Below the pieces are notes generated by a model that searched no databases, had not been told where the DNA came from, and saw only the letters and a program-made list of their open reading frames with translations. Source: a virus (taxonomy: Duplodnaviria; Caudoviricetes). From it: DNA of 59,256 bases. The DNA lies in IMG/VR virus record IMGVR_UViG_3300028025_001698, positions 1-59,256 of that record; one strand, written 5' to 3'. Position numbers and translations under genes: made by a program. Of the stretch, positions 3,178 through 45,692 are shown in pieces (position 1 is the first letter of the stretch; every line of letters begins with the position of its first letter).

Positions 3178-3418
3178 ATTCTCTGCAGCATGGTGTCAAC
3201 CATGTAAGCAACTAGATGCATTCCTAGCAGAAGCCTTGTTAGAATATCCTGAGATTGAACTTGTGAGTATGCCTATTGAAGACAATAAAGATTCAGTATC
3301 ATACTACGGTATCCGTACAGTACCCACTATGATTATGGTTGATGACAATGATCAGGTACTCAGGACTTCTGTAGGCTTTATACCTACTAAGGTTAAACCT
3401 TTTTTAGCAGGTACCTAA
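3164..3418 (+). CDS. Thioredoxin
   Basis: FSAAWCQPCK active site and IRTVPT cis-Pro loop; lies next to the RNR. Confidence 0.9.
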   Translation: MKLLKFSAAWCQPCKQLDAFLAEALLEYPEIELVSMPIEDNKDSVSYYGIRTVPTMIMVDDNDQVLRTSVGFIPTKVKPFLAGT

Positions 3419-3421
3419 TAG
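3406..3421 (+). promoter_or_regulatory. Phage RNAP promoter candidate AGcaGGTACCTAATAG
   Basis: 14/16 match; ends 3 nt before the tRNA gene. Confidence 0.7.
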
Positions 3422-5017: not shown

Positions 5018-5068
5018 AAAAAAAAAATAACCCCTACTAGGATAATTCCTAATAGGGGTTTTTTATTT
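5016..5068. terminator. Bidirectional intrinsic terminator between the convergent arms
   Basis: AACCCCTACTAGGA-TAAT-TCCTAATAGGGGTT stem flanked by an A-tract and a T-tract. Confidence 0.9.
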
Positions 5069-5069: not shown

Positions 5070-8000
5070 TCAGGTAAAGAAGTAAATCATTCCCTTGTTG
5101 CCTCGTGCTTTAAGTTCTTTTAAGAATGCATCACGTTTGTCTTTATATTTTAAACTATCCCAAGCATATATGCCTGAATATTTTGAATTAAAATTATAAT
5201 ACATATACATATTATCTGCTAAAGATTTTGCCTGTTGTTTTGTAATACGAGTAGATTCAGGTCTATCAGGACCCGGAGGTGTATAACCTGAAGATTTACT
5301 TTCAAGAAATTCTTTCAATTTCTTTTGGTAATCTGCTAACTCATTTGGCTTTTTATCTTTTAGATATTTGTATTCACGATCAATAGTAGTAAACATACCT
5401 TTGTAAGGTGATCCTGGACCAATTACAATCTCATCATTACGCATCATTTCAGGAACAGCTTCCCTGAGTTGCTTCATAAAGTCAGTAGTAAAACCTTTAG
5501 CCATGTTCCACTCAAACACTTTGGGAGCTACAATATTGTTAGCTACATAGTGAACAAAGGGATAACTCATAGAGTCAACAATAAAATTATCAAACACAGG
5601 AATAATAAAGCTAGAGTCTGCTGGTGTTTTATTACCATTAAGTAACCTTGCTGTCTCAGCAATAATAATTGACTCACGGTATTGACCAAATGTAGGACCA
5701 ACTTGGTTAACTGCTCCAGATCCTTCTTCAGGTATAAACAAAGACCCATCGTCTAACCTTAAGCCTTTAGCTTTAGCTGGTGCTAGAGGGTTAAACATTC
5801 TGGCAGTTTCCATTATACGTCTTCGTATACCTTCTGCACCTTTAATCTGAACAATATTTCCTGTAGGTTCAGTACCAAATCTACCAATAGAAATGTTTTC
5901 ATTATAGTAACCAATTGGCTTAGGAACTCGACCAAACATTTGTAGATACCTGACCATCTTTTTAGGTAATACATATTGCCAAGAGTCAGTTGTCTGTTTT
6001 AAAGTTGATTTATAAATTTCATTAATGTCTTTAGCTAAAGCATTAACGTCACCATTATAAAACCTTACTGCTTCATCCCTAAATTCAGGATGACTCTTTA
6101 AGAAAGCTTGGGCTTCTGCAATGTGGTAATTAGCTGGCTTACCATAGTCGGTAGTCATCAAGACTTTCTTTGAGAAGTCTTTATTGAATTGTTTATTACC
6201 AGCAACCCCTGCACCACCATACTTAGCAAGTAGAATTTTAAAGTTTTCAACCTTATCTGGTTGACTATCTCCAAAAGCAGAAGAAATACCTTGATCTAAA
6301 GCTACTGTTGTAAAGTAATATCGTGGATCACCCTTTTCATTAGGTAACGTATCGGTAAATAAATCACCAACTTTGTCAATAAACTTATCCCATACCAAAC
6401 CAACACGGCTTAAGATATCCATGTTACCAACGTCAGAAGCTAAGAAAGAACGACCAGCTGAGTTCATATCAAGAGCTACAGTAACCCTTGGAGTAAAAGG
6501 AGTTCCATTCAACTTAGAGTCTAAGTAATTAGCAGCATCAAGATAAGCTTGAAGCTTGTAACCCCAGTCATCTCTATCTGCTTCTTTAAGGAAATTATCT
6601 AATGCACCCTTTTGAGCAGGAGTAAGCTTTTCAATAAGACCTTCTGGTTTACCTAAGGCATTAACAACTTCACGGGTATTGTTAGGAACAATGCTACGTA
6701 ACAATCTACCTTTTGCAGCAGCCTCAGCAATAAACTCTGGTGTTACTGTTTGTAACAAGTCAGGTAACAAAATAGATTCAGATGACATACCTGCAGACCT
6801 ACTTGAGTCAAGCACACGACCAAGTGTTGTAAGGAAGCTTAATTCTTTTTCATCTGCTGACAAAGTAAAATTATTATTTCTTGCTTTACCTGCAATCCTA
6901 CTAAAGAAACCTTCAGCAGTTGCTTTGTTAACCCCTGTATTATGGAAGTTACTATTAAGCATAATAGGAGCAGACTTACCTACAGTTAATGCACGAGTCC
7001 ACTTATTACGTTGTGGATTAAAGTCAGTTGCATCCTGATACATTCGGTGTGTTGCATAGTCTTCCCAATAAGTAGAGAACTGTGGACCACCATAAGCCAC
7101 ATGCTTTGCCATGTCACCTAACTCAGTCTGAAGGTTGTTTACTTTTTGATCAATAACTTCTGCCGCTGTTTTGTTTCCATTAACAGAAGCATCTTGAATG
7201 TCTTCTTCAGATACCTTTAACAAGCCCATAACATTTAATTGTGCTGGACTAGTTGGATTCATTACATGACCGAGAATAGCTTCATTAAACAAAGCAGCAA
7301 AGTAAGCTTTAACAGGAGAAATAAATAAGGGTACTTTAGCTACAGCACCTTTGGCCTCAGCCATTTCTTTGGTAACAGTATACTCTTGCTTTTTCTTATC
7401 CATTTCACGGACGTCTTGCAACGCACCTTGATAAGCACCTGTCTCTGTTGGAGGAGCCTTTTGAGCTTTTCCTGACAATGCACCAGTAACACTACGTTGC
7501 ATGCCTTTGCTTTTGTATCTCAACTCAGCACCTAAGCCTGGACTTAACCTGAGAATCTCAGTACCTTGTGGATCAACATCCTCAATTAAGTATCCCTTAT
7601 CAACTAGCGCTTGGCTAATAGTTGCACCAGCTGCTTCATTAGAAATGTTTTGATTAATAGCTTGAGAGTTACCAACAAAAGTTTCTTCTCCTGCACCTTT
7701 AGATAACTTTTTAAACAAACGACCTAGGTTCTTCTCAACCATGTCCCGTTTAAGACCACCGTTAACAGCTACTTTACTTAGCGGACCATCACCATCATCC
7801 ATCAACATTTGATCTAAGCCACTGATATCAGAGTTGTCTTCAGCAGACATGATTTCACCGTCTTTTTGATTTGCAGCACCTGACAACATAGGAGCTAACA
7901 AAATAAAAGAAGTAGTAGCTGCATTACCAACTTGTTTAGTATCTAAACCAGTACCTTGTTTAAGGTAAGTAAGACCGTTAAGTTGTGCATTAGAAGTTGT

Positions 8001-8570
8001 TCCTTCTTTATACAAACCTACACTTAAATCGTTTAAACCATTAGCAATGTTCATAGCAGTACGAACAATAGCACCTGCTTCAGTAGCCTGAACTGCACCA
8101 TCACCATAAGCAGTCCTAATTCCTTCTTCATTTTCCCAACGAGAAGGATCAAGGATTTTCCTTGCTTCCATTTGACTGTTACGTTCTTCTTGAAGCTTGC
8201 TATAGTAGTCTTCGTTAGTACTTTCACCAGCAAAAGTATCCATACCAAAGCCACCATCCTCTTGAGGGGCTTCAGTCATCTCTGGCATGTCATCAATAGG
8301 TTGTTGAGTAGGAATTAATTCCTCTGCTGGCATACGAACATCAGTACCCGCTAGTAGCCTTGCATCAGGAGGTAATCCAGATAACCTTCTTGCAGGAACA
8401 AACTCTTCTTCTTCACCAAATATCAATGATGGATTAGGAATTGTTTGTTGTTCAGGTGGTGGAGGAGCATTCATACGAGCATTAGCTTCGTTGATTTGCT
8501 GTTGAAGTAAATCGTCTGCAATACGTGGTATTGTAGGTACGTTAACCTTTGTATTAATATTAATCGCCAT
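5070..8570 (-). CDS. Putative virion-encapsidated single-subunit RNA polymerase (divergent T7/N4 family)
   Basis: YWEDYATHRMY...FNPQ (DxxGR region), VALDMNSAG (motif A, D701), KDFSKKVLMTTDYG (motif B, K801/Y809), GPTFGQYRES (PNFVHS-like), IIPVFDNF (motif C, D994), C-terminal YFFT. Last gene of the ejection module. Confidence 0.82.
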   Translation of the reverse strand: MAININTKVNVPTIPRIADDLLQQQINEANARMNAPPPPEQQTIPNPSLIFGEEEEFVPARRLSGLPPDARLLAGTDVRMPAEELIPTQQPIDDMPEMTEAPQEDGGFGMDTFAGESTNEDYYSKLQEERNSQMEARKILDPSRWENEEGIRTAYGDGAVQATEAGAIVRTAMNIANGLNDLSVGLYKEGTTSNAQLNGLTYLKQGTGLDTKQVGNAATTSFILLAPMLSGAANQKDGEIMSAEDNSDISGLDQMLMDDGDGPLSKVAVNGGLKRDMVEKNLGRLFKKLSKGAGEETFVGNSQAINQNISNEAAGATISQALVDKGYLIEDVDPQGTEILRLSPGLGAELRYKSKGMQRSVTGALSGKAQKAPPTETGAYQGALQDVREMDKKKQEYTVTKEMAEAKGAVAKVPLFISPVKAYFAALFNEAILGHVMNPTSPAQLNVMGLLKVSEEDIQDASVNGNKTAAEVIDQKVNNLQTELGDMAKHVAYGGPQFSTYWEDYATHRMYQDATDFNPQRNKWTRALTVGKSAPIMLNSNFHNTGVNKATAEGFFSRIAGKARNNNFTLSADEKELSFLTTLGRVLDSSRSAGMSSESILLPDLLQTVTPEFIAEAAAKGRLLRSIVPNNTREVVNALGKPEGLIEKLTPAQKGALDNFLKEADRDDWGYKLQAYLDAANYLDSKLNGTPFTPRVTVALDMNSAGRSFLASDVGNMDILSRVGLVWDKFIDKVGDLFTDTLPNEKGDPRYYFTTVALDQGISSAFGDSQPDKVENFKILLAKYGGAGVAGNKQFNKDFSKKVLMTTDYGKPANYHIAEAQAFLKSHPEFRDEAVRFYNGDVNALAKDINEIYKSTLKQTTDSWQYVLPKKMVRYLQMFGRVPKPIGYYNENISIGRFGTEPTGNIVQIKGAEGIRRRIMETARMFNPLAPAKAKGLRLDDGSLFIPEEGSGAVNQVGPTFGQYRESIIIAETARLLNGNKTPADSSFIIPVFDNFIVDSMSYPFVHYVANNIVAPKVFEWNMAKGFTTDFMKQLREAVPEMMRNDEIVIGPGSPYKGMFTTIDREYKYLKDKKPNELADYQKKLKEFLESKSSGYTPPGPDRPESTRITKQQAKSLADNMYMYYNFNSKYSGIYAWDSLKYKDKRDAFLKELKARGNKGMIYFFT

Positions 8571-11500
8571 TTGATTTTCCTAATTCTTTTTGTAAGTATT
8601 TAGCGAAAGCGGGACTTGTTCCAACTATGGGAAGCAGCTTCGCACCCTGTTCAATCTTTTTACCTTCTGGTGCCTCCAAAGCTCGTTTAACCTTACTAAG
8701 GTATGAGAGCTGTGCAGATTGATCGGCAATCCTATCTAAAATATCTTTCTTTTTGTTGTCTTCCATCAACGGGAACATCTGATCAAACACTCTTTGTCCA
8801 GAACCTAGTATACCCATTTGATTAATAACTCTTAAGAATTCTTTGTTTTCTTTAACCCATTTAGGTGGGCTTTCTCCGTACTTGATCATGTCTTTAATGT
8901 ACAAAGCAATCATAGACAAACCAATCATCATAGCAATAACAGCCGCAGAATTCTTTTGGTCTTCTGATCCTGCTTTACGCAAGTCACCTAACAACCGTGG
9001 AAGAATATTAGCAGTAAATGCTGATGTGTATCCTGTAAATTGAGTAAATAATTTTAAATAAGGATCACTATAAAACTTAGGTCTGTTAAGAGTGCTAGGT
9101 AAAACAACAGCTTCGTTAACAAAGTTATAAGTAGCTTGTTGTAAGTTATTAACAACATAATCTTCTTTAGACTTTGTATCAGCATCAATAGCCATCATGT
9201 ATTCATAGTCAACATTTATTCTTCTTAAGTGGTCTTTAGCATCTGTTATTTCTTGCTCTGTACCTGTACCTTGAGTAACAACGTCTAACCAATTCTGAAT
9301 AGCATCAGCTGCAATAGCTAAACGAGCATTACGAGTAATAGCAGTTACAGAAGTAAGACCAGTTATCTTAAAGAAACCATCAGTCCATTTTGAATAGTAA
9401 GAAGTTAATATATCATTACGATGCCCAATACCACCTTCTCTAAGATATCCTGCTTCAGATAATTCTGTTCTTATCCTAGCGTTTTTGATAAGAACTCTAT
9501 CAGAAACCTTATTACCAAGCTCTCGATATATAGCACCCATCTCACTACCCGTACTCTTAAGCAATGCAAGAGTAGCTTTAGCGGCTTGTGGCCTATTTAA
9601 ATTACGATATATCTGAGCAAACTCTACAGTAGAACTAATAGCGGCTAATGGTAATGCAGTAATAGTAGATAAAAAGTTAAGGGTATTTAAACCACCTTTT
9701 AAATAAGGATTAGTAATAGCTTTGTATTCTCCATTGCGTATTGCTAATACGTCTTGAATTTCTTTAGCTATAAACCCTGCTTGTTCAGTATCTATATCAC
9801 CGTTGTCTAACATCTTTTGAACTAATGATGCAAGCTTAGAGCCATTCTCACCAATAAATTCTTTATTAGTATTATATGCAGCTGCAGATGCCGCCAAAGA
9901 GTAAGCATTGTCTAATATATTATGAGACATATATTGACTAAATAAACTTTTAAATCCTGGTTGAGCTATTTTAGCTTCTAATTCTTGTTTACCTTTAATC
10001 TTTTCAGCATTACCGTTAAGCATTGCATCAAGAGAATCTTCAAAGCTGTTTACTTGTTTGTTATCAAGTATTGCGTTAGTTAATTGTGTTGCATCTGCAT
10101 AATTCATATTCAAATGCTGTTGTAAATCTTTAACAAACTTAGCAGAATTTCTTGATACAAGTGCCTTATCTAATGGCTTATGTTCTAAGAATTGTTGGAC
10201 AGATAAATCTTTACCTGTTGCTTCATTATATGCTCGAGTTAAATTACTTATTCTATCTGCATAATCAATAATAGAATCTTTATACTGATCAAATTTACCA
10301 TAATCAATAGCTATCTTATCAGCAATATCTCTGGTAGAATCAGCAAACAAATCCTTTTTAATACGAGCTAATTCTTTTATAGCATTAACAACAGTAGGAT
10401 TAGAAATAATACGAGAGGCTTCTGTAGCAGATACCCCACCAAAAGAAGAAATAAAGTTTTCGCTATTACCAAAGTTCTTAAAGATGTTTGATTCCATCAT
10501 AGCCTGATGGTTCTCAATAGACGTACCATTAACAGCATTAGAACTACCTAACAATGTAGCTAACGTAGCTGAGTAAATGCTTTTGTGGTTAGTATCACCA
10601 GTTATAATGTTAGAGAACTTAGAAAATAAACCACCAATACCTTTATCTTTTATAGCTGAATACGTCTTAGCAACAACACCCTCAGTACCTCTTTTAGAAA
10701 TCTCAGGTTCCGCTAAAACATCTAACGATGTCTTAACATTATTTTTTAATTGTGATGTTTCTGTTTCATTAATAACTTGTTTAGTTGAAGGCATTGTAAC
10801 AAGAGGTTGATCTCCTGCTGCAATACGTTGCTCATTAACATCACTAAGGTATTTCTCTCTGAACTCAACATCTGTTGATGACCTAGGTATTTGGTCACTA
10901 GTAGTTAATGCTGAATAAGTTTTAAGGCCACCAGCTAATCCACCACCTAACACAGCACCACCAGCACCTGCATTCATTAATCTAGACTTTAACTTTGTCA
11001 TTTCTTCTGGTGAAGAAGGTAATTCAAAACCACCTTTCTCACCAAAATAACTAGTTAACTCTTGTCCTGTTTCTGTTAAACCTTCAACAAAAGCTCCTGC
11101 TCCTGTAGCTAAACCAATATCCTTTAGCTTACCCATCTTACTACCAGAGATTGCTTTAAAAGCAGTACTAACTTCTTTAACTGACTCAGTCATAGACTTA
11201 CGAACTAGCTCTTCAGCCGCTTCTTTAGTCATTGTTTTTTGTAATTCTTTTACAACTAAATCTTGAGTAGACTTCTTAGCAATATTTAAACCAGTATTTT
11301 TAAATAAATATCCTAATGATAATTTATCTAATACTGTCATAGTAAAGCCAGCAGCAATAGCAGCTGTTGCATTCTTATTCTTTTGGTCATTGTATACTTG
11401 ACCTGTATACATACTAAAAGGAACTGTTAAAGAAACACCATAAGTTAATGGTGCCGCCATTGTAGCAACAATACTAGTTAACATTTGTGGTGCAGAAGCA

Positions 11501-12369
11501 GCAGCACTTCCTACTGTCCAATCAAAGAATTTACCTAAAGTGTCTAGCTTCCAGTTACCTTTTTCATCAAAAGCTTCTGCGCTTCTTAATTCAGGTATGT
11601 CTGTTAACATTGAGTTTTTAGTATTAATACCTGATTGTGCAAAACTTTTTATTGCTTCACTACCAGTCTTGTCAGCAATTAAATCAAAGGTACCATATAT
11701 GTTTTTAGAGGCTTGAAGTTTACCTTGATCCCAACCACTATCTAAGTTAGATGTAGCCTTACCAAACTTATCTTCACCAGTTCTAATAATAGCTGGACCA
11801 GAAAAATAATCACTGTTGCCTGAATCATCAACAACACTGCCAAACTGACCAGCAGTATCAGTATAACGTTTAGCCATAAAACCAGCGGCATTACGTTCTT
11901 TGTTTAATGTGTCAAGAATATTGTCTGCTAATGTAGGCTTACGATCAACCCTGCGTTGTGCACGTTCTAAACTACCCATATACATAGAAGTATATTGGCC
12001 AGCATCTGTAGAAATAGTTGGATCAACATAACCTAATTCAAGAGCTTTACTAGTAAGACGTCTGCCAGCAGGATCTACTAAATCACCAACCTCACGCTTA
12101 TAAGATTTATCTCCAGTAAAAACAGGGGTAGTATAGTTGCCTTCACTAATTAAATTTTCCATAATTGCTGTTTGGAAATCAGCACCTAATTGAGCACCTT
12201 TAATTTGGTTAGGTTGAAACTTAGCAGTCTCCCTAGCGCTAACACCTTGAAGACGGATGGATTCCCCTGTAGGGGTTACCATAGTGTCGGCATCTTTAAG
12301 TGAGATACCTCCCGGTAAATCTGATTTCCTCGAGAAAATTTGTCGAAGTTCTTCGTCTAATCCATCCAT
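8560..12369 (-). CDS. Large internal virion/ejection protein with N-terminal staphylococcal-nuclease-like domain and hydrophobic segments
   Basis: LKDADT...IRLQGVSARET...DKSYKREVGDL...G resembles SNase DGDT/RLxGIDxPE/DxYGR. Ala/Gly-rich hydrophobic helices follow. Position fits an ejection protein. Confidence 0.7.
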   Translation of the reverse strand: MDGLDEELRQIFSRKSDLPGGISLKDADTMVTPTGESIRLQGVSARETAKFQPNQIKGAQLGADFQTAIMENLISEGNYTTPVFTGDKSYKREVGDLVDPAGRRLTSKALELGYVDPTISTDAGQYTSMYMGSLERAQRRVDRKPTLADNILDTLNKERNAAGFMAKRYTDTAGQFGSVVDDSGNSDYFSGPAIIRTGEDKFGKATSNLDSGWDQGKLQASKNIYGTFDLIADKTGSEAIKSFAQSGINTKNSMLTDIPELRSAEAFDEKGNWKLDTLGKFFDWTVGSAAASAPQMLTSIVATMAAPLTYGVSLTVPFSMYTGQVYNDQKNKNATAAIAAGFTMTVLDKLSLGYLFKNTGLNIAKKSTQDLVVKELQKTMTKEAAEELVRKSMTESVKEVSTAFKAISGSKMGKLKDIGLATGAGAFVEGLTETGQELTSYFGEKGGFELPSSPEEMTKLKSRLMNAGAGGAVLGGGLAGGLKTYSALTTSDQIPRSSTDVEFREKYLSDVNEQRIAAGDQPLVTMPSTKQVINETETSQLKNNVKTSLDVLAEPEISKRGTEGVVAKTYSAIKDKGIGGLFSKFSNIITGDTNHKSIYSATLATLLGSSNAVNGTSIENHQAMMESNIFKNFGNSENFISSFGGVSATEASRIISNPTVVNAIKELARIKKDLFADSTRDIADKIAIDYGKFDQYKDSIIDYADRISNLTRAYNEATGKDLSVQQFLEHKPLDKALVSRNSAKFVKDLQQHLNMNYADATQLTNAILDNKQVNSFEDSLDAMLNGNAEKIKGKQELEAKIAQPGFKSLFSQYMSHNILDNAYSLAASAAAYNTNKEFIGENGSKLASLVQKMLDNGDIDTEQAGFIAKEIQDVLAIRNGEYKAITNPYLKGGLNTLNFLSTITALPLAAISSTVEFAQIYRNLNRPQAAKATLALLKSTGSEMGAIYRELGNKVSDRVLIKNARIRTELSEAGYLREGGIGHRNDILTSYYSKWTDGFFKITGLTSVTAITRNARLAIAADAIQNWLDVVTQGTGTEQEITDAKDHLRRINVDYEYMMAIDADTKSKEDYVVNNLQQATYNFVNEAVVLPSTLNRPKFYSDPYLKLFTQFTGYTSAFTANILPRLLGDLRKAGSEDQKNSAAVIAMMIGLSMIALYIKDMIKYGESPPKWVKENKEFLRVINQMGILGSGQRVFDQMFPLMEDNKKKDILDRIADQSAQLSYLSKVKRALEAPEGKKIEQGAKLLPIVGTSPAFAKYLQKELGKSNGD

Positions 12370-12379
12370 TTGTTTTCCT

Positions 12380-14827
12380 TTATTTTAACTGATTCTGTAA
12401 TCTTGATTTCAAGAATTGTGCAAATGCGGTTTCATTATCTGTACCCTTGAATTCTTCACGATACTTTTTACCATCAGGTGAATTCCATACGGTTGCTAAT
12501 TTATTAACTCCATCAGCTAAGTTTTTCTGATCAATATTACCTTCTTTGTCAGATGCTGCTCGTCTAGCTAATGCATAAATTTCACTAATCTTTTCAGGCG
12601 GCATTGGCTTATTACCAATATTAAACAAATTAGGATCTGTACCTGTAAGACCCATACGATGAGTAACAATATTACGAGCTAAATAAGGTGTTACATCTTT
12701 AATGTCTTTAACTCTTCCAGATTTTTTATCAGCAATCATTTGTTCAGTTGCTTGATTCATAAGTGCAGTAGCTTCTTGGGAAACATCGGCACTTGTAATA
12801 TCAAAACCTGAACGTTTTAAATAAGATAAACTCTGTTGTGTATTTTGTTTAGGTGTTGGTAAACCAGATCTAGAAGGATTTGGTTGATCTTTAACATCTT
12901 CGCTACCAAGCTCACGTTTGTAAATTTCGCTAATAGCACTGGCCGCTTTATCAGTATGTTTTTCCATACGTTCAAGTTTGGCTTGAGGACTATTGTTCTT
13001 TAATTCTTCACGAGCATACATCATAGCCCACTGGTTACCCATTGTAGCTTGAAGTTGATTAAATTGTTTTTGAGATTGGGCAGCAAGCACTCTCATTTCT
13101 TGTTCTCGTTTTGCATAATCTCTTGTGAGCATAAATTCTTGATCAATTTTTCTCATCTTTTCTTGTTGATTAGCAATAAAACGATCATGTTCCCTACGAG
13201 CATCTTCTCTTAGAACTGCTCTTTTCTCAGCAGAAAGAGCATTCTCTTCAGCACGAACATCACGAACTTCTTGACCACGAATCTGAACAGCAGCTGCACG
13301 AATAGCTTTCTTATCTGCTTGTTGTTGTGCATTACGCTTAGATGATTCTTCAAATGCCTGTCTACCAGCAAAAGCAAGAGCACGATTAACACCAAACTTC
13401 CTAGCACCAACAGCAGTTGATATAGCCATACGAATAATATCTTGATTATTTAAACCAAGTTCTTCTTTAAAGCCACTGGCAGTAAACAAATTAGCTAATG
13501 AATCTGTAAAAGATTTTTCTGTCTTTTGTGTTCCAGATAATTCTTCAACAATCTCTGCTACACTACGAATTTTTCTAGATGCTTTAGCAGGATCTGTTTC
13601 ATAATCTTTCTTTAAACCAGAAACAAAAGCAGGATCTGTGCTTTCTTTAGGTGGAACTTCAGATACAGCAACTGTTACAGGAGTATTTTGGATATTGCTC
13701 TTATCACGTTCAGCAAGTTGTTCTACAGTCATTTGTTCTGGAGCAACTGCAAGAGGTGCTACGACAGGAGCTGGAGCTACTTGGGTAGGTGAAACAATAA
13801 CAGGTTGTGTGTCTTCAGGTACTACTTCTAAAGGAGTTTTATATCTATCAGGCATTGCAGGTACAACTGAGACAGTAGAAACTGGTACTACTGTATCTAC
13901 AACTACTGGAGGGACTTCTCTTGAAGTTATAACCGCATTAGATGGAGAAGCTTCAATAACAGGAGTTGATACTGCTTCAGTAGGTGGTCGTTTATCAACT
14001 GCAACCATATTAGCGTATAATTCAGCTTGATCTTTAGGATAGCGCTCATCCCATACAGGAATGTTTTCAACTGTTGGTTGAATAATCATTGGTACTACAT
14101 TTTGACGTTTTCTTTCTTCGTCAATGTCTGCATCAACAGTACCAAATTGGTAACCTGCCGCAGACTGTACTTGTTGGGGTACTACACCATATGTACCGTT
14201 CTTATAGTTAGCTTGGGCAGAAGAGCCACGGCTAAAGTCAGGCACACTCATTGTACCATGCATGAATGATGATCCGGGTACATCTGGATGACGATACGCT
14301 AATGATGGCACACCGCTAGTACCATCTGCATTATACAATGGGGCATCTGAGTTACGTACATCTACTGCACCGTCACGCATATTAGCCTTACGACCTTCTT
14401 GCACCATACGTTTAATAGCTTTTTTATTCTTAGGATTTTGTGCAGCAGCTCTAGGAATAACAGCTTCTCCGGGAGTAAGCATAGCAGGAACTGTATCAGT
14501 GCCTTTTGCTTGGAAGATAGGAGCTTGAGCAAGGCTACGTTGACCTTGTTTGAACATACCAGTGCCAGCTAAAGGATTTTGAGATGGGATACCTAGCTTT
14601 TGTTTGTTCATCCTAGCAGGAGGAATACCCATGTCTTTTAGTCTGGCATTATTAACTTGTTCTTTATGACCTAAACCTTGATTAGCTTTTGCAGCTGCTT
14701 CTTTAAGTTTAAGTTCATGTAATTGTTGTTTACGCATTTCATCAAGTCCCATCTTAGAAACTTCACGAGCTTCTTTATTCTGGAACTTGAGATATTCTCT
14801 CTGTTGTTTACCTGATAAGGGTGCCAT
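12380..14827 (-). CDS. Internal virion/ejection protein
   Basis: GTDTVPAMLTPGEAV motif typical of phage ejection and tape-measure proteins; Pro/Val-rich linker; coiled-coil region. Confidence 0.7.
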   Translation of the reverse strand: MAPLSGKQQREYLKFQNKEAREVSKMGLDEMRKQQLHELKLKEAAAKANQGLGHKEQVNNARLKDMGIPPARMNKQKLGIPSQNPLAGTGMFKQGQRSLAQAPIFQAKGTDTVPAMLTPGEAVIPRAAAQNPKNKKAIKRMVQEGRKANMRDGAVDVRNSDAPLYNADGTSGVPSLAYRHPDVPGSSFMHGTMSVPDFSRGSSAQANYKNGTYGVVPQQVQSAAGYQFGTVDADIDEERKRQNVVPMIIQPTVENIPVWDERYPKDQAELYANMVAVDKRPPTEAVSTPVIEASPSNAVITSREVPPVVVDTVVPVSTVSVVPAMPDRYKTPLEVVPEDTQPVIVSPTQVAPAPVVAPLAVAPEQMTVEQLAERDKSNIQNTPVTVAVSEVPPKESTDPAFVSGLKKDYETDPAKASRKIRSVAEIVEELSGTQKTEKSFTDSLANLFTASGFKEELGLNNQDIIRMAISTAVGARKFGVNRALAFAGRQAFEESSKRNAQQQADKKAIRAAAVQIRGQEVRDVRAEENALSAEKRAVLREDARREHDRFIANQQEKMRKIDQEFMLTRDYAKREQEMRVLAAQSQKQFNQLQATMGNQWAMMYAREELKNNSPQAKLERMEKHTDKAASAISEIYKRELGSEDVKDQPNPSRSGLPTPKQNTQQSLSYLKRSGFDITSADVSQEATALMNQATEQMIADKKSGRVKDIKDVTPYLARNIVTHRMGLTGTDPNLFNIGNKPMPPEKISEIYALARRAASDKEGNIDQKNLADGVNKLATVWNSPDGKKYREEFKGTDNETAFAQFLKSRLQNQLK

Positions 14828-14836
14828 AGTATTTCC

Positions 14837-15832
14837 TTAAAATATTCCTAGCTTCTTAGCTAACAATGCTCCACCAATGACCATGCCTACGGGTCCCATA
14901 GCGGCTAATGCGGCTTCCCCGCCTAAACCTGCGGCAGCACCCATACCAGCTGTAGTTGCACCAGTAGCTGCAGCTCCACCAGTAGCTAATGCAGTACCTT
15001 CAGCGGCTGCAACACCAGTGCTTAATCCTGCTAATGAGCTACCTAATGGAGCGGCAACTTCACCTGCACCAACTACTGTTGGCAACACTGAAGAAGCAAC
15101 AGGAGAAACCCCTTGTACAGCACCACCTATTGATGCAGGGGCATTCAAAGCATACATACCAGTAGAAGCAGGAGATGCTAAAGCACCAGCATTAGTCAAT
15201 GCAACAGGAGCACCACTAGCAGTAGTACCCATAGATGTAATAGCGTTAGTTGTTAATGGTGCATTATAAGCTTTATATGCGGCATCAATTCCTTTTGCAG
15301 CTGCATTGGTACCCATAGCTGTAGCTTGTTGACCTAAATATTGTTCTGTTTGGTCAGGCATAGCTTGAGGCACAACAATCTCTGCGGGTTTAATAGATGC
15401 GGCTAATGGAGCTACTTGTTCTTTTTTAGTCCAATTCCAAGGATCATCTTCTGCACCCATTGTTCCTTGTGCATAACCTGCTACGGATGTGCTACCATAA
15501 GCATACCCAGGAACTGACATAGTACCATTAGCAAGAGTCATACCTGAATTCATTTGGTTTGATGTACCACCCATACCCATTGAAGGAGTACTTGATGGTT
15601 GTGGTAAGTCAGAACCATAACTACTAGGTGCACCTAAGCCTGAGGATTGTGGTTGCATTGCACCAGCACCACCCCCTTTACCACCACTAGCCCCTTGCAT
15701 ATTACTTTGAGTCATGTCTGGTAATTGCATACCACCTTGAGGTATACCTCCGTCACCACCCATTGCACCTAAACCTTGTGATGCACCTTGCGATGGATTT
15801 CCTGTTGCGGGAGTTCCCATATTACCAGCCAT
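14837..15832 (-). CDS. Gly/Ala-rich internal virion protein with C-terminal hydrophobic helices
   Basis: Low-complexity G/A/M/S sequence with a hydrophobic C-terminus; position in the ejection module. Confidence 0.65.
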   Translation of the reverse strand: MAGNMGTPATGNPSQGASQGLGAMGGDGGIPQGGMQLPDMTQSNMQGASGGKGGGAGAMQPQSSGLGAPSSYGSDLPQPSSTPSMGMGGTSNQMNSGMTLANGTMSVPGYAYGSTSVAGYAQGTMGAEDDPWNWTKKEQVAPLAASIKPAEIVVPQAMPDQTEQYLGQQATAMGTNAAAKGIDAAYKAYNAPLTTNAITSMGTTASGAPVALTNAGALASPASTGMYALNAPASIGGAVQGVSPVASSVLPTVVGAGEVAAPLGSSLAGLSTGVAAAEGTALATGGAAATGATTAGMGAAAGLGGEAALAAMGPVGMVIGGALLAKKLGIF

Positions 15833-16518
15833 TATTTACCTCCTGAAGCATTTTGTCGTGCGGGATTACCATAGATAGTCGAAGCATAGCGCTGAAGACC
15901 TTGCCAAGCAGAGTCAAGACCTTGTTGTTCAACTCCACGTTGTTGATTACCAAGATTAGCCGTTCCTGCTACACCTTGATTAGCAATACCTGATGCAGCT
16001 GTAGCACCTGACTGAAGCGATTGTTCAGCTGCAAGACGATTCTTAAACGCTTTGTCTTCGTATTCAGCATCTAGTTTAGCTAATTGACCTGTAGTCTCAG
16101 CGTTCTGAGCGCCTTGCATAACAGCTTGTCGTGCAGAACCTAATGTCCCTGCTTGACCAAAACCTGTGTTAAGTTTTGCAACACCTTTTTGAGCTTCATT
16201 AAGAACACCAGCTTTTTGAGCAGCTAATATTTCAGCGCTAGGTGCAGTTGCCATAGTAGACAACCTTCTATTTTGATCACCTAAAGAACCAACAGCAGTA
16301 GATGTAGTTGCCTCAAGTAAATCTGCTCCAGATCCAAAAGCTTTTTTCTGTAAACTAGATTCACCAGCTACCTTAGACAAGTCACCACTCTCATATTTAC
16401 CTTGAGCCGCAGTACCTACTTTTTCTAAATAAGGTTGCGCCCACTCTGGAATACTACTTGTAGAACCTCCACCGCCCCCGTAGTTCCTTTTAATAGAACC
16501 ATTAATTTTATATTTCAT
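15832..16518 (-). CDS. DNA transfer/ejection protein (P22 gp7-like position)
   Basis: GGGGG...PEWAQPYL start, Ala/Gln-rich body, ends SGGK. Confidence 0.65.
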   Translation of the reverse strand: MKYKINGSIKRNYGGGGGSTSSIPEWAQPYLEKVGTAAQGKYESGDLSKVAGESSLQKKAFGSGADLLEATTSTAVGSLGDQNRRLSTMATAPSAEILAAQKAGVLNEAQKGVAKLNTGFGQAGTLGSARQAVMQGAQNAETTGQLAKLDAEYEDKAFKNRLAAEQSLQSGATAASGIANQGVAGTANLGNQQRGVEQQGLDSAWQGLQRYASTIYGNPARQNASGGK

Positions 16519-20520: not shown

Positions 20521-20536
20521 CTATTAGGTACCAAGT
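20521..20536 (-). promoter_or_regulatory. Phage RNAP promoter candidate acttGGTACCTAATAG
   Basis: Perfect 12-nt core, 18 nt upstream of the nozzle/ejection operon. Confidence 0.65.
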
Positions 20537-28177: not shown

Positions 28178-29686
28178 TTAAAGATTAGCGGCATCAAGTC
28201 GTGCCTTGAGTGATTCAATGATTGCTTGTTGTTCTTGGATGCACTTCATCAGCGCATATTGCAAATCTGTTTGGTAGATTGACAAACGCATCTTGGGGGT
28301 TTCATCTTTGCTTGCCCAATTACTTTCCATGACCAACTCAGGTGCAACAGATTGCACATCTTGAGCAATAACACCTAATGTCAGGCCATCATCTTCTTCC
28401 ATGTTTTGGTCAATGTAATTAAATGTCTGAACAGGAATTGCACAAATCTTGTCAAGGTAAGAAGTTGCAGGGGCAAAGTTTGTTTTTTCTCTGCGGTCAG
28501 ACAGGTTAACATTGTTTGCTGAATAGTTAGCAATACCGCCATTAGAACGAACTTCAAATCTTACTGCTGTTGCATCACTTGCAGAATGAAAGAAAAAATC
28601 AGTATTATTAGGTGTTACTGCGCTGTAATTAATTCGCAAACCATAAGGCGTTGAGTTTGTATTTCTAATGTAAGCAACATTGTTTGCAACATTACCTACA
28701 AGTGTAAATGCTGCGCTTGAAATAGTGCTTGTAGTCCCCACCAGAAAGTTACCGCTAGAGTCTATTCTCATGCGTTCTGCCCAAGCAGTGTTGGGGTACT
28801 GCAAGAAGATAATTTCCGAACTTGCCCCCATCTGCATTGTCGCAGCCCATGCGTTCGGGCCAGTGACGCTCTGCATGTAGAAGTTTGGCCCTTGACCAAT
28901 CGTTGAACTTCCATCTGCCCACACAGATATACGAGAACCAGTTGAACCAGTGCTTTGCACACGAAGGCCATTGCTAGTTGCGCTACCAGAGTCAAGCGTC
29001 ATTCGGTAAGTAGTGTCTGTCGTCGTACCGAGCAACAGATTGTTGCTGGCGTTCAGAGTCATCGCCTGAGTAAAGGTGATAGCGTTTCCTGCTGTGCCTG
29101 ATGGGGCTGTGCGCCAAAAGTGACCACCATTTAATTGGTAATAATTAGTTGCTGGAGTTGAAGTTGATTTAATATATTTCCATCCACTAACATACTGAGC
29201 ATTTAGTGATAACTGTAAAGACAACTCATCAGTTGTCATCAGTGATGCAAAATTTGTAATTTGTAAACCAGCAGAAAAAGGAGTTGTCCAAGCACTCGGA
29301 ATAACTCCCAAGCCTAGATTGCCTGAAGTGTCGAGGCGCATACGCTCTGTGCCGTTTGTGCTAAACACCATTGGATGGTTTGTGTCAGTTCTGAGAACTA
29401 CCTCTGTGTCTGTGCAAAGCGCATCAAACTGAACAGGCGTTGTTGTATCAATAATAGTAAGTCGTGGGTTGGCTGACCCACTAATACGAATACCATCTTG
29501 AGAAGTGTTAGAAAGTATGTCTAATTTTTTAGTAGGCGATGCAGTACCAATACCAACATTCTGAGAAGCGTTAATTGTTACCGCAGTAGTATCCGAAGCA
29601 CCAGTTTTTAAAACAAGTGCTCCAGTAGTATCCGAGCTAACAACATAACCAGTTGTTGTGGTTGTTCCTGAAGATATAGAACTCAT
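28178..29686 (-). CDS. Tail fibre with C-terminal intramolecular chaperone (peptidase S74-like)
   Basis: NVGIGT and ERMRxDxSGN repeats; SDRREKTN...GVIAQDV...PELV followed by a coiled coil. Confidence 0.85.
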   Translation of the reverse strand: MSSISSGTTTTTGYVVSSDTTGALVLKTGASDTTAVTINASQNVGIGTASPTKKLDILSNTSQDGIRISGSANPRLTIIDTTTPVQFDALCTDTEVVLRTDTNHPMVFSTNGTERMRLDTSGNLGLGVIPSAWTTPFSAGLQITNFASLMTTDELSLQLSLNAQYVSGWKYIKSTSTPATNYYQLNGGHFWRTAPSGTAGNAITFTQAMTLNASNNLLLGTTTDTTYRMTLDSGSATSNGLRVQSTGSTGSRISVWADGSSTIGQGPNFYMQSVTGPNAWAATMQMGASSEIIFLQYPNTAWAERMRIDSSGNFLVGTTSTISSAAFTLVGNVANNVAYIRNTNSTPYGLRINYSAVTPNNTDFFFHSASDATAVRFEVRSNGGIANYSANNVNLSDRREKTNFAPATSYLDKICAIPVQTFNYIDQNMEEDDGLTLGVIAQDVQSVAPELVMESNWASKDETPKMRLSIYQTDLQYALMKCIQEQQAIIESLKARLDAANL

Positions 29687-33643: not shown

Positions 33644-34027
33644 TTATATTAGGTCTGAAAAGTGTCTGATCCTATGACAATTAGCACATAGTAAAACACA
33701 TTTATCAAGTTCTTGTTTAGCTTTTTCATTTAGGGAAATAGTATCCCGTAGGAAATGAGCAGGTTCTTTGTTTGCTTTTGTAGACGGGTCTGTGTGATGA
33801 AATTCAAATGCAGCCTGATGTACTACTGCTAAACAGTCATTACATTTACCGCCTTTATAAGCAATAGCTTCAGCTTTTAAACTTCTAGATTTTTCTTTTC
33901 GAAAAATAGACCTACATTCTTTACAATCACAATTGTATTTAATACCACTCTTTTTAAGTTTTGTTAGCACAGAAAATTCTGATACCGCTTTGACTTGATT
34001 ACAAGTCCTACAAGTTTTTGTTTCCAT
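33644..34027 (-). CDS. HNH homing endonuclease
   Basis: CxxC pairs, GGKCNDC...FEFHH.DP...KCVLLCANCHRIRH. Confidence 0.88.
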   Translation of the reverse strand: METKTCRTCNQVKAVSEFSVLTKLKKSGIKYNCDCKECRSIFRKEKSRSLKAEAIAYKGGKCNDCLAVVHQAAFEFHHTDPSTKANKEPAHFLRDTISLNEKAKQELDKCVLLCANCHRIRHFSDLI

Positions 34028-40095: not shown

Positions 40096-41736
40096 CTAAA
40101 TCCATGTTGTTTCTATTTGCTGAAAGTTACCCATACGCTGTGAAAAGGGTACTGTTGTGTTTGTTAATCTGTCTCCATGTGTCCTGATAACCTCAAGAGC
40201 AATAGCTAAGGCAATAACTGTATCATCATTCTGACCTATGATAGCATTTGTCTTTCCAGACTCATCTGCTACATAATTCATCAATTCACCAATAATAACC
40301 CTAGAAGGTATCCATATATCTTCTTGTTCAATAGCATTCTTTAAGAATCCAATGATAGCTGGCTTAGAAGCTGATGTTGTTCTCCAGCCAATTCTACTAC
40401 CCTCTTCTTTGGATACATTTGCCATCTTAGTCTGATAGTACATATTCATGTAACCCATTTGAGTTAACCTGTTTAATGTTGCTATACCCATAGAGTTAGA
40501 CTCTACTGCTAACAAAGCATTATTGTAGTACCTACCTAGATAAAATAATAAATCACCAAACTGACTAGGATCAATCGTATTACTGCGATAAACTGCGCAC
40601 ACTTCCCTCTGGGCATTAATGACCACTGCTGTAGAATAATCCTTGCCAACACCCAGAGCAACGTCAGCACCGATAGCAAAGGCATCTTCAAAAGTAGGAT
40701 ACTTAAATATCTCGATAGACCCATCTCTTAAATCCTCCATCATAGAGGATTCAAAGTTAAACTCTCTCTTGGCTAATATTGGTTGAGGTATAAGTTTACT
40801 TAACTTCTCAATGTTAAATACATTAGAGCCAGAAACAATAAATGCTTCTTCAGGTGTCGCAGGGTATTCTTGTCTGAACTTATTCTCACCACCCTCTGCA
40901 ATCTTTAACCTTCTCCAGTATAATTGGTCATCACTAAGGTTGTACCTAGTAACTAATACTTCTTCTTCTGTTGTTCTCTCAAATCCTTCAGGGACTTTCC
41001 TCTGGTACTCCGTCATCAGGTACCATGGAACAAAGATAGCGATATAGTCATTCTCACCTTTTACAGCTCCCTGCCATAACCTGTGAAATGAATTACCCAC
41101 ACCATTAGCAGTACTCTCAAGGATTACTTCGGTACCTTCCGCTTGGGAGATTCCCTGAAACAATCCTGCTAGGATCTTTTCATCATGCCCCCAAAAGGCT
41201 ACCTCTGAAAGGTGAGCAATCGTAGGAGTCGTTCCCCTACCAGCCTCAGGAGCACCAGCCGTATATAACCGATATCCTGAATCATTATGCTCAAACATAA
41301 TCTCTTTTGCATTTGATTTCTTTAACACTGGTCTGAATGTATCAGACATGTTATAGATAGTATTCCTGGACATACTAAATAATGCATCACTAGTAGCCGC
41401 ATCATGCGCCATAACTACTGACTTATTATAAGCATTAAAGTAACTCTTCCAGAATACCCTACCTGTCGTGTATGTACTTAAACCCATCTGTCGAGCTTTT
41501 AAAATAATGGCTCTGACTCTCCCCGTCTCTTTTAATTGTTTATCAAGAGCTTCATTTACAATCTTCTGAGCTTCATTAAACTCGAAAAATTGGAATCCCT
41601 TGGAGGAGTCCTTGGGTAAGATTTTAATTTGTTCTTTGGCGAATAACTCAAAGTTATTCTTGTATGAAGCTAATTTTTCTCGCTTCTTTAATTCCCTCAG
41701 AGCCTCTAGCTTATCAGAATTGTTTTGTGTGGTCAT
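40096..41736 (-). CDS. terL: Terminase large subunit
   Basis: ILKARQMGLST Walker A, HLSEVAFW Walker B, ESTANG, IGADVA...DYS nuclease motif, DDTVIA. Confidence 0.95.
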   Translation of the reverse strand: MTTQNNSDKLEALRELKKREKLASYKNNFELFAKEQIKILPKDSSKGFQFFEFNEAQKIVNEALDKQLKETGRVRAIILKARQMGLSTYTTGRVFWKSYFNAYNKSVVMAHDAATSDALFSMSRNTIYNMSDTFRPVLKKSNAKEIMFEHNDSGYRLYTAGAPEAGRGTTPTIAHLSEVAFWGHDEKILAGLFQGISQAEGTEVILESTANGVGNSFHRLWQGAVKGENDYIAIFVPWYLMTEYQRKVPEGFERTTEEEVLVTRYNLSDDQLYWRRLKIAEGGENKFRQEYPATPEEAFIVSGSNVFNIEKLSKLIPQPILAKREFNFESSMMEDLRDGSIEIFKYPTFEDAFAIGADVALGVGKDYSTAVVINAQREVCAVYRSNTIDPSQFGDLLFYLGRYYNNALLAVESNSMGIATLNRLTQMGYMNMYYQTKMANVSKEEGSRIGWRTTSASKPAIIGFLKNAIEQEDIWIPSRVIIGELMNYVADESGKTNAIIGQNDDTVIALAIALEVIRTHGDRLTNTTVPFSQRMGNFQQIETTWI

Positions 41737-41763
41737 AAATTTGTATGTAATAAAAAGGTTTCT

Positions 41764-41779
41764 CTATTATGTACCGACT
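41764..41779 (-). promoter_or_regulatory. Phage RNAP promoter candidate AGTCGGTACaTAATAG heading the structural arm
   Basis: 15/16 match, 27 nt upstream of terL. Confidence 0.8.
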
Positions 41780-41840
41780 AACCTATTGATTTACTTATAA
41801 AAATAATTCTGATATTTTTTGGAAATGTAATCTTTTGTAT

Positions 41841-41912
41841 ACGTCTTTGGGGTACCCCTACTTTTATATATGGGATGTCGCTGGGGAATGTCGTGGGTAG
41901 ATGTCTTTGTGT
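41841..41912 (-). repeat. Four short imperfect repeats (CC/AC-x-A-x-x-GACAT type)
   Basis: ATGTC at 41875, 41888 and 41901 (13-nt period), plus ACGTCTTTGGGGT at 41841. Confidence 0.55.
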
Positions 41913-41964
41913 GTGTTTAAAAGAATCAATGTTTGTTTATGTGTACCCTAGCTGGGTTTGTATG

Positions 41965-42200
41965 CCCCCCTAGTTTCTCTCTGTTGTTTCGGTGCGTTGC
42001 GCTGCCCGTCTCAGCTTCCTTTGTCTGCGCTGCTTGGAGCTATCATGCCTTCTGTTGTTGCTGGTTTTCTTGTTTTCTTTTCTTGCCTTGGTCTATTGAC
42101 TTGTTGTGCTGCTGCTTTGCTAGGTGCTCCCCTGTTTCCTTTGTACCTTGCTTTGTTTACCTTTGTTGGGACATTAGTCTGGGCTATTGTTTCTTCTATC
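41965..42200. other. Non-coding A-depleted tract, probable genome terminus region
   Basis: 9 A in 198 nt (41973-42170) on the + strand; lies between the divergent arms. Confidence 0.6.
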
Positions 42201-42280
42201 TGAGGTTTAGATCTCTGCCACATACTTGCGGGTATGTGAGAGCGATCTTGCTCTGTATGTCATAGCTCAAGGAGATTAAT

Positions 42281-42472
42281 ATGACTAAGTTAATGCACAT
42301 TGTTCTTATATTCTTGTGGTCACATCTAATGTTGTGGTGTGTTGATAAGATACAGTATGAAGTTATGTATGGATGGATGCATGTCATCGGTCTTATCATT
42401 TCAGGTGTAGTAGCAGGGATTCAGTTCGCTATTCTTATTATTGAAATCAACGAAGCAACAGAAGAGGCTTAA
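42281..42472 (+). CDS. First early gene, small membrane protein
   Basis: AAGGAG RBS; two hydrophobic helices. Confidence 0.7.
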   Translation: MTKLMHIVLIFLWSHLMLWCVDKIQYEVMYGWMHVIGLIISGVVAGIQFAILIIEINEATEEA

Positions 42473-42473
42473 T

Positions 42474-42587
42474 ATGTACTTAGTATACTGTAACAAGACA
42501 AACAAATTAATTGACAGAGTATTGTCAGCTAAAGATTTAATCAAATATAAATCAGAAGATGTAACAGTTCACATCGTTCACATCTAA
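42474..42587 (+). CDS. Small early protein, 37 aa (not in ORF track)
   Basis: MYLVYCNKTNK...; GAGG RBS. Confidence 0.5.
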   Translation: MYLVYCNKTNKLIDRVLSAKDLIKYKSEDVTVHIVHI

Positions 42588-42669
42588 TCACAGCTCTTCT
42601 CGGGCTTACGGAGAGACCACTTGGGGTAAGTACCAAGATTTCATTAACAGTCATTACCAAAGGAATAAT

Positions 42670-42954
42670 ATGACTATCTTAACATTCGGATTTGCCACTA
42701 AAGGCGACACAACAACTGCTTCATTCACAATGGAGTCATCTACATTGATGGCAGTCTATACAGACTCATCAAACAGATACCTGTATGCAGTAGATAGTAA
42801 CGATATTGTTCGTAAACTGTCTATTACTCGTGATGTTGAACACGCACGTAAGCAGTATAAGGTCGCTCGTAGCTTAATCGGCAAACAAGTTAAGTTCGGT
42901 GTAACCTCAGGATGGTCTTCATCTAACTGGTTCAATGAAATCGTAGAAGCTTAA
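42670..42954 (+). CDS. Early hypothetical protein
   Basis: AAGGA RBS, 94 aa. Confidence 0.75.
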   Translation: MTILTFGFATKGDTTTASFTMESSTLMAVYTDSSNRYLYAVDSNDIVRKLSITRDVEHARKQYKVARSLIGKQVKFGVTSGWSSSNWFNEIVEA

Positions 42955-42964
42955 GGAGAAACCT

Positions 42965-43216
42965 ATGAAAGCACGTTATTTACTCTTAAACCCACTCAAG
43001 GCAAGAGACTTTGGGTGTACAACAGAAGAAGTCGTAGAGTCAGTACATGAATTCGGCTGTAAAGTAGTCATGTCACCAGACACAACAGGAGAAACACTGC
43101 TGTATGCGGTGTCAGACAACAGAAGTGTGCTGGAAAACATGGTAAATGAGGTAGAACTCAATGGCATCATCATAGAATACACAGCAATCTATGATCAAAT
43201 ACTGGAAGGACAGTAA
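42965..43216 (+). CDS. Early hypothetical protein
   Basis: AAGGAG RBS, 83 aa. Confidence 0.75.
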   Translation: MKARYLLLNPLKARDFGCTTEEVVESVHEFGCKVVMSPDTTGETLLYAVSDNRSVLENMVNEVELNGIIIEYTAIYDQILEGQ

Positions 43217-43217
43217 A

Positions 43218-43427
43218 ATGGCATACCTAAGACAGTCCTATGGTAGATATTACCTAGATATGTCACCTGAAGAGCTAAATGCACTAGTAGACGTCATGGA
43301 TGAACTACCTTCTATGACAAAAATAGAGACAGGCATACACTACCAGATAACAAAACACAGGGAATACATACAACAGGAGGAGAAATGGCACAGACAGATA
43401 GATATTGACAGGGGGATTGTAACCTAA
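43218..43427 (+). CDS. Early hypothetical protein
   Basis: ATG 43218 after AAGGA RBS. Confidence 0.65.
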   Translation: MAYLRQSYGRYYLDMSPEELNALVDVMDELPSMTKIETGIHYQITKHREYIQQEEKWHRQIDIDRGIVT

Positions 43428-43431
43428 AGAC

Positions 43432-43478
43432 ATTCTCTCAGGACATTTCGCTGTGAAAAAGGCGAGACCTGAGGGAAT
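43432..43478 (+). other. Long interrupted stem-loop (RNase III-like site or regulatory hairpin)
   Basis: ATTCTCTCAGG...CCTGAGGGAAT outer stem with inner TCGC/GCGA stem. Confidence 0.5.
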
Positions 43479-43567
43479 TCTTGAAGGATTTTCGTGTGTA
43501 GAAAACCTGAACGTTGTTTTTAAACGTTTTTTGTCACTTTTTGAGCTTTTTAAACAAAGGAGTCTAA

Positions 43568-43735: not shown

Positions 43736-43736
43736 C

Positions 43737-43958: not shown

Positions 43959-43959
43959 T

Positions 43960-44556: not shown

Positions 44557-44564
44557 ACTTATTT

Positions 44565-45081: not shown

Positions 45082-45112
45082 TCCATTCTCCTTATTGTTT
45101 CTGATAAATTAT

Positions 45113-45684: not shown

Positions 45685-45692
45685 ATAAATTA

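Follow-up and report, generated by a model that had tools for sequence, protein, structure and literature searches.

Does the large open reading frame (ORF) that occupies positions 5070-8570 of this virus record, on the minus strand, encode an RNA polymerase (RNAP), and does that enzyme travel in the virion? The record, 59,256 bp long and hereafter called the window, comes from a marine podophage (short-tailed); among named phages, Roseobacter phage CRP-7 is its closest relative. The genomes of the two phages are collinear, and tblastn identities are 51% in the capsid protein, 48% in the primase, 33% in the T7-like RNAP and 31% in the DNA polymerase. The ORF opens with an ATG and specifies a protein of 1166 amino acids (aa), labelled P0001, that has no cysteine. 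An earlier note on this DNA had described it as a compact virion RNAP (vRNAP) and had used T7 RNAP as the reference for its motifs; the length given there was right, and the strand, which was left unstated, is minus. Profile comparison places P0001 in the single-subunit RNAP superfamily, with a core closest to the mini-vRNAP of phage N4, and its pattern of residues makes it very probably a catalytically competent homologue.

Two alignments of the P0001 family were used, a narrow one limited to the close family (A1, 28 sequences) and a broad one (A2, 63 sequences, down to 17% identity to P0001). They were compared by hhalign with reference alignments assembled from named GenBank records, namely 10 T7-like RNAPs and 8 N4-like mini-vRNAP regions. 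The broad alignment matched the N4-like reference with a probability of 98.4% and an E-value of 7.1e-15 over 699 columns (P0001 265-1070 against mini-vRNAP 193-1036), and the T7-like reference with a probability of 96.4% and an E-value of 1e-9 over 590 columns (P0001 309-1056 against T7 207-880). As a yardstick, the T7-like and N4-like references, which are known homologues, matched each other with a probability of 95.6% and an E-value of 1.1e-8 over 306 columns. The controls gave only short alignments: 16 columns with reversed T7 (probability 0.1%, E 0.4), 24 with reversed N4 (0.1%, E 0.59) and 28 with three family-A DNA polymerases (0.0%, E 0.89). The profile comparison with T7 RNAP and N4 mini-vRNAP that the earlier note had called for thus matched both, and homology to single-subunit RNAPs, including all the catalytic equivalences proposed there, was borne out (E 7e-15 and 1e-9, versus 0.4-0.6 for the reversed decoys). 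The choice of T7 RNAP as the reference relative was not, the N4 mini-vRNAP being nearer both by E-value and by length of alignment. A language-model search with residues 480-1166 also placed clusters bearing PF00940 (RNA_pol) at the top, with a score of 0.94, and 17 of the 30 matches bore that set of families.

The residue map returned by hhalign pairs the catalytic positions one by one. P0001 R509 falls on N4 R424 and T7 R425, Q520 on N4 Q434 and T7 Q435, D701 on N4 D559 and T7 D537, G706 on N4 G564 and T7 G542, K801 on N4 K670 and T7 K631, and the Y809/G810 pair on N4 Y678/G679 and T7 Y639/G640. In addition, D504 pairs with T7 D421. For motif C, F993-D994 pairs with N4 F950-D951, as the earlier note had supposed from the FD common to both, and D994 with T7 D812; Q963 is aligned with T7 H784 and has no like residue aligned in N4. 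The N4 residues that the alignment returned are presumably the published catalytic residues of the mini-vRNAP. Among the 63 sequences of the broad alignment nine columns are invariant (R509, R526, G621, D701, G706, G724, R750, Y809 and D994) and six more are conserved at 90% or above (K801, G810, K870, N955, Q963 and N1011). Each catalytic position picked in the earlier note lies in an invariant or nearly invariant column and is paired by hhalign with its T7 and N4 counterparts; the resemblance is more than chance.

All six strings quoted in that note were found in the P0001 translation at the residues given, and its T7 strings and residue numbers were correct when checked in the T7 RNAP of NC_001604. 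From the N-terminus, P0001 begins with a conserved peptide followed by a disordered Pro/Glu/Gln-rich linker (residues 1-116, 8223-8570, assigned from composition and from the predicted local distance difference test, pLDDT); in A1, M1, P15 and P38 are invariant and L22 nearly so. The Pro, Glu and Gln richness already reported for this end amounts to 31% of the first 130 residues versus 14% elsewhere. The T/DxxGR-type motif and the NPQ...R segment follow at residues 501-528 (YWEDYATHRMYQDATDFNPQRNKWTRAL, with R509, Y511, Q520 and R526; 6987-7070), then motif A, VALDMNSAG, at residues 698-706 (D701 and G706; 6453-6479) and motif B at residues 797-810 (KDFSKKVLMTTDYG, with K797, K801, Y809 and G810; 6141-6182). 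GPTFGQYRES, the counterpart of T7 APNFVHSQDG, occupies residues 958-967 (5670-5699), and motif C, IIPVFDNF, residues 989-996 (F993 and D994; 5583-5606), all on the minus strand like the gene. The motif spacing is as first measured, with 100 residues from D701 to K801 (94 in T7) and 185 from Y809 to D994 (173 in T7).

An AlphaFold2 model built with A1 had a mean pLDDT of 78.2 and a predicted template modelling score of 0.76, with pLDDT below 50 at residues 1-22 and 29-116. In it, strand 697-702 ends at D701, helix 792-807 precedes Y809, and strands 989-992 and 995-999 are joined by a turn that carries D994. A long beta-hairpin (residues 897-927, 5790-5882, minus strand; strands 897-910 and 916-927) stands in the region of the T7 specificity loop, where hhalign pairs P0001 889-952 with T7 711-773. 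The predicted secondary structure is consistent with a polymerase palm and fingers. The chain ends in YFFT (residues 1163-1166, 5073-5084, minus strand), and the C-termini of the family are conserved (YFFT, YFMT, ... YQYN) and resemble T7-type ends, T7 RNAP itself ending in FAFA; a strict aromatic-x-aromatic/Met-small ending is found in just 24 of the 63 members. The position that the earlier note had assigned to YFFT is right, as is its statement that the other RNAP of the window ends in YFFC. The equivalence of YFFT to FAFA is suggestive only, the T7 C-terminus aligning near residue 1056.

P0001 is one of a family of related proteins. A word-indexed search gave 42 relatives at 37-100% identity, none of them functionally named (they carry 'hypothetical protein' or nothing), and an exhaustive phmmer search (E <= 1e-3) gave 87 cluster representatives, the best-conserved stretch of this set corresponding to about residues 465-1100 of P0001. 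The full-length members are about 1010-1413 aa long and none is giant, which upholds the description of a stand-alone compact polymerase. One of the full-length members is CRP-7 gp33 (E 2e-40 with the hidden Markov model of A2), whose annotation reads 'hypothetical protein'. By BLASTP, P0001 matched gp33 over motif B alone (E 0.003) and did not match CRP-7 gp30, the T7-like RNAP of that phage. That such a protein is easily missed, as had been predicted, is plain from this annotation and from the empty Pfam and PHROGs results.

The case for packaging comes from the position of the gene and from the composition of its product. A tight leftward operon extends from the terminase gene to the polymerase gene, its last member; the polymerase gene shares 11 nt at its start with the end of the gene before it. 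Just beyond the polymerase gene, between the convergent late (leftward) and rightward operons, lies a hairpin (5029-5060) whose 14-bp stem has an A-run and a T-run on opposite sides; it is likely a two-way terminator. The gene immediately upstream (8560-12369, minus strand) encodes a cysteine-free protein of 1269 aa that matches phrog_6958, 'virion structural protein', with an E-value of 1.8e-17; its language-model leads reached only 0.81-0.89 (LPD3, LPD38, MuF_C and lysozyme-bearing clusters). Three more cysteine-free genes (815, 331 and 228 aa; 12380-16518, minus strand), without a match in Pfam or PHROGs, come before it. When compared with six full-length N4-like gp50 sequences (gp50 being the N4 vRNAP), the 1269-aa family gave a best probability of 24% (E 8e-4, at gp50 residues 324-399), which is weak and unproven. 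An assignment of these upstream genes to the N- or C-terminal domain of gp50 is not claimed, as neither domain was significantly matched.

The absence of cysteine from the 1166 residues of P0001 has a probability of 2e-6 at the background rate. It extends to the family, where 53 of the 63 members have none and the total is 15 in 76,306 residues, and to the end of the operon, whose last five genes (5070-16518) encode 3809 residues with no cysteine among them; in the remaining 29 ORFs examined, 114 of 10,311 residues are cysteine (1.1%). Likewise, full-length N4-like vRNAPs are free of cysteine (6/6), and the 10 T7-like RNAPs have 4 to 16 each. As quoted in the available part of PMC3821669, the lack of cysteine in the N4 vRNAP has been read as a requirement for entry into the cell. 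Two independent lines, the cysteine-free block on the one hand and the terminal place in the late operon, with its 11-nt overlap and terminator, on the other, thus support packaging and injection as far as sequence can. Taken with the parallel of N4 gp50 and the 1269-aa virion protein next door, they lead us to infer that the compact polymerase is packaged and acts early, a reading that we hold to be fairly probable. At the other extreme of composition, a 127-aa ORF of the structural module (33644-34027, minus strand) has 10 cysteines (7.9%).

The window holds a second RNAP gene, of the T7 type. The record begins and ends inside it: the N-terminal 524 aa, with 6 cysteines and 33% identity to CRP-7 gp30, are encoded at 57685-59256 up to the end of the record, and the C-terminal 86 aa, ending in YFFC, at 3-263, both on the plus strand. 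Since the frames of intact relatives are about 731-784 aa long, some 120 residues of this gene are missing from the record. At 24 of 33 related viral-contig loci the opposite strand carries a T7-like RNAP ORF, 3066-5536 bp downstream of the stop of the compact polymerase; the nine loci without it have only 2-4138 bp of downstream sequence. Two of the related loci (L039 and L048) have an insert within motif A of their T7-like RNAP gene, following ...PIDGSNNG. In L039 (15805-16561), Rfam identifies the insert as a group I intron (RF00028, 71.8 bits, E 6e-18), and a 163-aa ORF beside it (15805-16296) looks by eye like a homing endonuclease.

A 16-nt promoter-like motif, AGTCGGTACCTAATAG, occurs at 8 sites in the window when up to 3 mismatches are allowed, versus 0.39 expected. 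Five sites are on the plus strand (337-352, 2721-2736, 3406-3421, 44565-44580 and 51214-51229) and three on the minus strand (20521-20536, 41764-41779 and 45113-45128). Every one of them is intergenic and aimed at a downstream gene, one being upstream of the terminase gene, and related contigs have the motif at corresponding positions, in forms that vary by clade. One of the two phage RNAPs probably uses it as a promoter. No plus-strand copy is present between about 41,800 and 44,560, where the first small rightward ORFs lie. These ORFs are separated from the terminase gene by about 540 bp without a convincing gene (41737-42280), which contain a palindromic element, TTTGGGGTACCCCTAC (41846-41861; within it the palindrome GGGGTACCCC, 41849-41858), found exactly once in the window and followed by a long pyrimidine-rich tract. 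The element is identical in 2 of the 5 relatives examined and similar in the others, and the segment 41737-42280 is a candidate early control region. Sigma-70-like sites were not enriched (43 versus 42.5 expected). The distribution of the motif and the unique palindrome fit, though they do not establish, a relay of two polymerases, in which the delivered enzyme would read the first block and the T7-like one the units that bear the motif.

In the scheme that we favour, the ORF would encode an active right-hand, single-subunit, DNA-dependent RNAP homologous to the central polymerase domain of N4 gp50. As the product of the final gene of the structural operon it would be made late, packed in the capsid with the giant cysteine-free proteins encoded just upstream, and ejected through the tail on infection; it would then transcribe the first genes of the incoming DNA, until the cytoplasmic T7-like RNAP took over from AGTCGGTACCTAATAG-type promoters.

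A number of results weigh against this scheme or against the homology on which it stands. Direct searches were uniformly blank: Pfam (E up to 0.01) and PHROGs returned 0 families for P0001, which scores below the gathering threshold of PF00940; phmmer against the PDB gave 0 matches, and the A1 profile against the PDB just 4 irrelevant ones (E 0.69-1.9); tblastn against 50,697 phage records found nothing at 1e-3. With the narrow alignment, hhalign failed against the T7-like reference (probability 0.4%, E 0.15, 228 columns) and reached just 93.4% against the N4-like one (E 2.5e-7, 471 columns, P0001 251-811 against mini-vRNAP 177-680). At the place of T7 R627 and N4 R666, the first basic residue of motif B (R/KxxxK(x7)YG), P0001 has K797, in a column that is variable in the family. 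As to cysteine, 10 of the 63 family members have 1 or 2, and three other proteins of the window have none (a 787-aa tail-fibre-like protein, a 379-aa ORF adjoining the capsid gene and a 541-aa protein); its absence is a mark of virion or extracytoplasmic proteins generally, not of ejection in particular. Of the neighbour families, the four other than the 1269-aa one had no significant match to the six full-length gp50 sequences (E 0.16-0.67), and all five gave at best E 0.016 and a probability of 2.8% against ten single proteins of the N4 structural module (gp51-55, gp57 and gp64-67), so that no relationship by fission or fusion is claimed. A repeat search of 41700-52950 showed no repeated hairpin, and an N4-style hairpin promoter was not identified; transcription of the early genes by the host RNAP is possible. 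Finally, no virion proteomics of CRP-7 was found in the part of PMC6918029 that was available.

Four other explanations were weighed against the packaged, early-acting polymerase. One is that P0001 is an active RNAP that stays out of the particle, being synthesised during infection and serving a later gene class side by side with the T7-like RNAP. Neither the homology nor the intact active site carries information on location, and the missing early hairpin promoters also speak for it. However, a polymerase made last, from the gene that closes the late operon, cannot start its own transcript class; P0001 and 53 of its 63 aligned family members have no cysteine, versus 1-2% in the cytoplasmic enzymes of the phage; and the nearest relative is the packaged N4 enzyme. 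We regard this explanation as unlikely. Similarly improbable, in our opinion, is a packaged protein derived from an RNAP but serving mainly in structure or DNA translocation, in the manner of T7 gp16, with little role in gene expression. Such a protein would suit the grouping of the gene with those of giant cysteine-free proteins and the description of N4 gp50 as the analogue of T7 gp16 in the ejectosome (in the accessible text of PMC13434306), and the T7-like RNAP could in principle take care of transcription. Against it, four residues (D701, D994, Y809 and R509) show no variation and two more (K801 and G810) hardly any in 63 sequences diverged down to 17% identity to P0001, which implies selection on catalysis; translocation by transcription would, besides, itself require activity.

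The two remaining explanations bear on the homology. Motifs A, B and C are common to family-A DNA polymerases, and P0001 might accordingly be another right-hand polymerase, a DNA polymerase or a primase-polymerase. This is very unlikely given the E-values (1e-9 to 7e-15 with RNAPs, but 0.89 with family-A DNA polymerases) and given the RNAP-specific Arg of T/DxxGR, a hairpin at the place of the specificity loop, a Tyr at T7 Y639 and a Gly at T7 G542. These last two T7 residues act in ribose selection. Furthermore, the phage already encodes a family-A DNA polymerase, recognised by Pfam. That the motifs are chance matches in an unrelated virion protein would agree with the lack of any HMMER-level match to an RNAP, but an E-value of 7e-15 over 699 columns with five catalytic positions paired exactly, when decoys give 0.4-0.9, and the independent indication of PF00940 by the language-model search leave this explanation with hardly any credit.

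How does the compact polymerase, read as a packaged enzyme, compare with known systems? The earlier note had spoken of a non-N4 genome plan. The phage is indeed not a schitovirus, but the local plan is N4-like: N4 gp50, like the P0001 gene, is the last gene of a leftward structural operon and faces the replication genes, and the portals of both phages belong to PF23899 (E 2e-126 and 1e-153). N4 also pairs its vRNAP with a T7-type RNAPII, according to the available text of PMC13434306. The likeness stops there: Pfam puts the two capsid proteins in different families, hardly anything else is shared by BLASTP, and PHROGs sets N4 gp50, gp51 and gp53, as well as CRP-7 gp33-35, in no family shared with window proteins. 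The second RNAP of the window phage, whose genome is about 60 kb, is one full-length chain, and that of N4 a gp15/gp16 heterodimer. N4 gp50 is a chain of about 3000-3500 aa; P0001, at 1166 aa, lacks the N-terminal domain of about 1000 aa and the autoinhibitory C-terminal domain of about 1400 aa and, unlike gp50, ends in a conserved free C-terminus. It is about 13% identical to the N4 mini-vRNAP, a level invisible to HMMER, and it matches no PHROG, whereas N4 gp50 matches phrog_2206 over its whole length. Because of these differences in size and domains, P0001 lies outside the schitovirus gp50 family as this is defined (a giant three-domain chain, phrog_2206).

T7 RNAP and the RNAPs of Autographiviridae resemble P0001 in overall size and in an aromatic-rich extreme C-terminus, but their genes are among the early or middle ones and not, like that of P0001, in the late structural operon. 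The tight run of large cysteine-free proteins at the end of that operon recalls the ejection proteins of T7 (gp14, gp15 and gp16) and N4 (gp52 and gp51), with the difference that the proteins of the window have no significant match to N4 gp51, gp52 or gp53. A precedent for an N4-type vRNAP that is not one giant chain is provided by the Alteromonas phages AltAD45-P1 to P4, whose vRNAP is split into ORF126 and ORF127, with the polymerase part separate from the C-terminal part (available portion of PMC3821669). According to the same text, BLASTP against N4-like gp50 detects both pieces, of 1404 and 2481 aa, the one with the polymerase contains two cysteines, and a second RNAP is absent from these phages; P0001 is a bare core of 1166 aa, cysteine-free and paired with a T7-like RNAP. 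The crAss-like phage phi14:2 offers a functional analogue in gp66, a polymerase carried in the virion and ejected, of an unrelated fold akin to the RNAi-type and two-barrel polymerases (PMC13434306, in the part available).

In the full-text literature covered, which included PMC6918029, PMC11934525, PMC3821669 and PMC8528129, in part and with supplements outside its scope, no compact N4-type polymerase is described; nor is a second RNAP in CRP-7-type phages, the supplementary ORF tables of CRP-7 again lying outside that scope. The available text of PMC13434306 (2026) calls the vRNAP 'unique to this family' (Schitoviridae), takes its giant size as integral to ejection, and counts only two virion RNAPs as structurally characterised, those of N4 and of the crAss-like phi14:2. 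Set against that statement, the infection strategy based on an ejected polymerase probably reaches beyond the N4 family. A compact cysteine-free core in unrelated phages of about 60 kb suggests that what is delivered can be the core alone, free of the N- and C-terminal domains. Two N4 papers (one being PMC13492108), as far as their accessible parts go, give the tail channel a width of about 30-35 Å, and P0001 would be a small, tractable enzyme for studying the passage of a folded polymerase through it. The compact polymerase also gives a handle on the evolutionary assembly of N4 gp50, it gives a large 'hypothetical protein' of a marine phage group a function, and, with a family member present in a cultured phage, CRP-7, the prediction is directly testable. 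In a broader and much more tentative picture, CRP-7-type podophages would carry a minimal, unfused, natural 'mini-vRNAP' with its own free T7-like C-terminus, travelling with separately encoded giant ejection proteins, and N4 gp50 would have arisen later, when a core of this kind was fused to ejection and regulatory domains. Transcription delivered by the virion would then be no peculiarity of Schitoviridae but widespread in abundant ocean phages, and the enzyme would be an evolutionary bridge between the T7 and N4 types. The CRP-7-type group is reported to be ubiquitous in marine viromes in the part of PMC6918029 that was available.

Two observations made elsewhere in these genomes are worth recording. 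The 502-aa protein encoded at 28178-29686 (minus strand) has a C-terminal Peptidase_S74 'chaperone of endosialidase' domain (E 1.9e-14); it probably serves as a tail fibre or spike whose C-terminal chaperone is self-cleaving. The ribonucleotide reductase of the window is encoded by a single gene of 629 aa (816-2705); that of CRP-7 (L001, 35552-38170) is annotated as two coding sequences, gp44 and gp46, with another ORF between them, and this gene may carry an intervening element.

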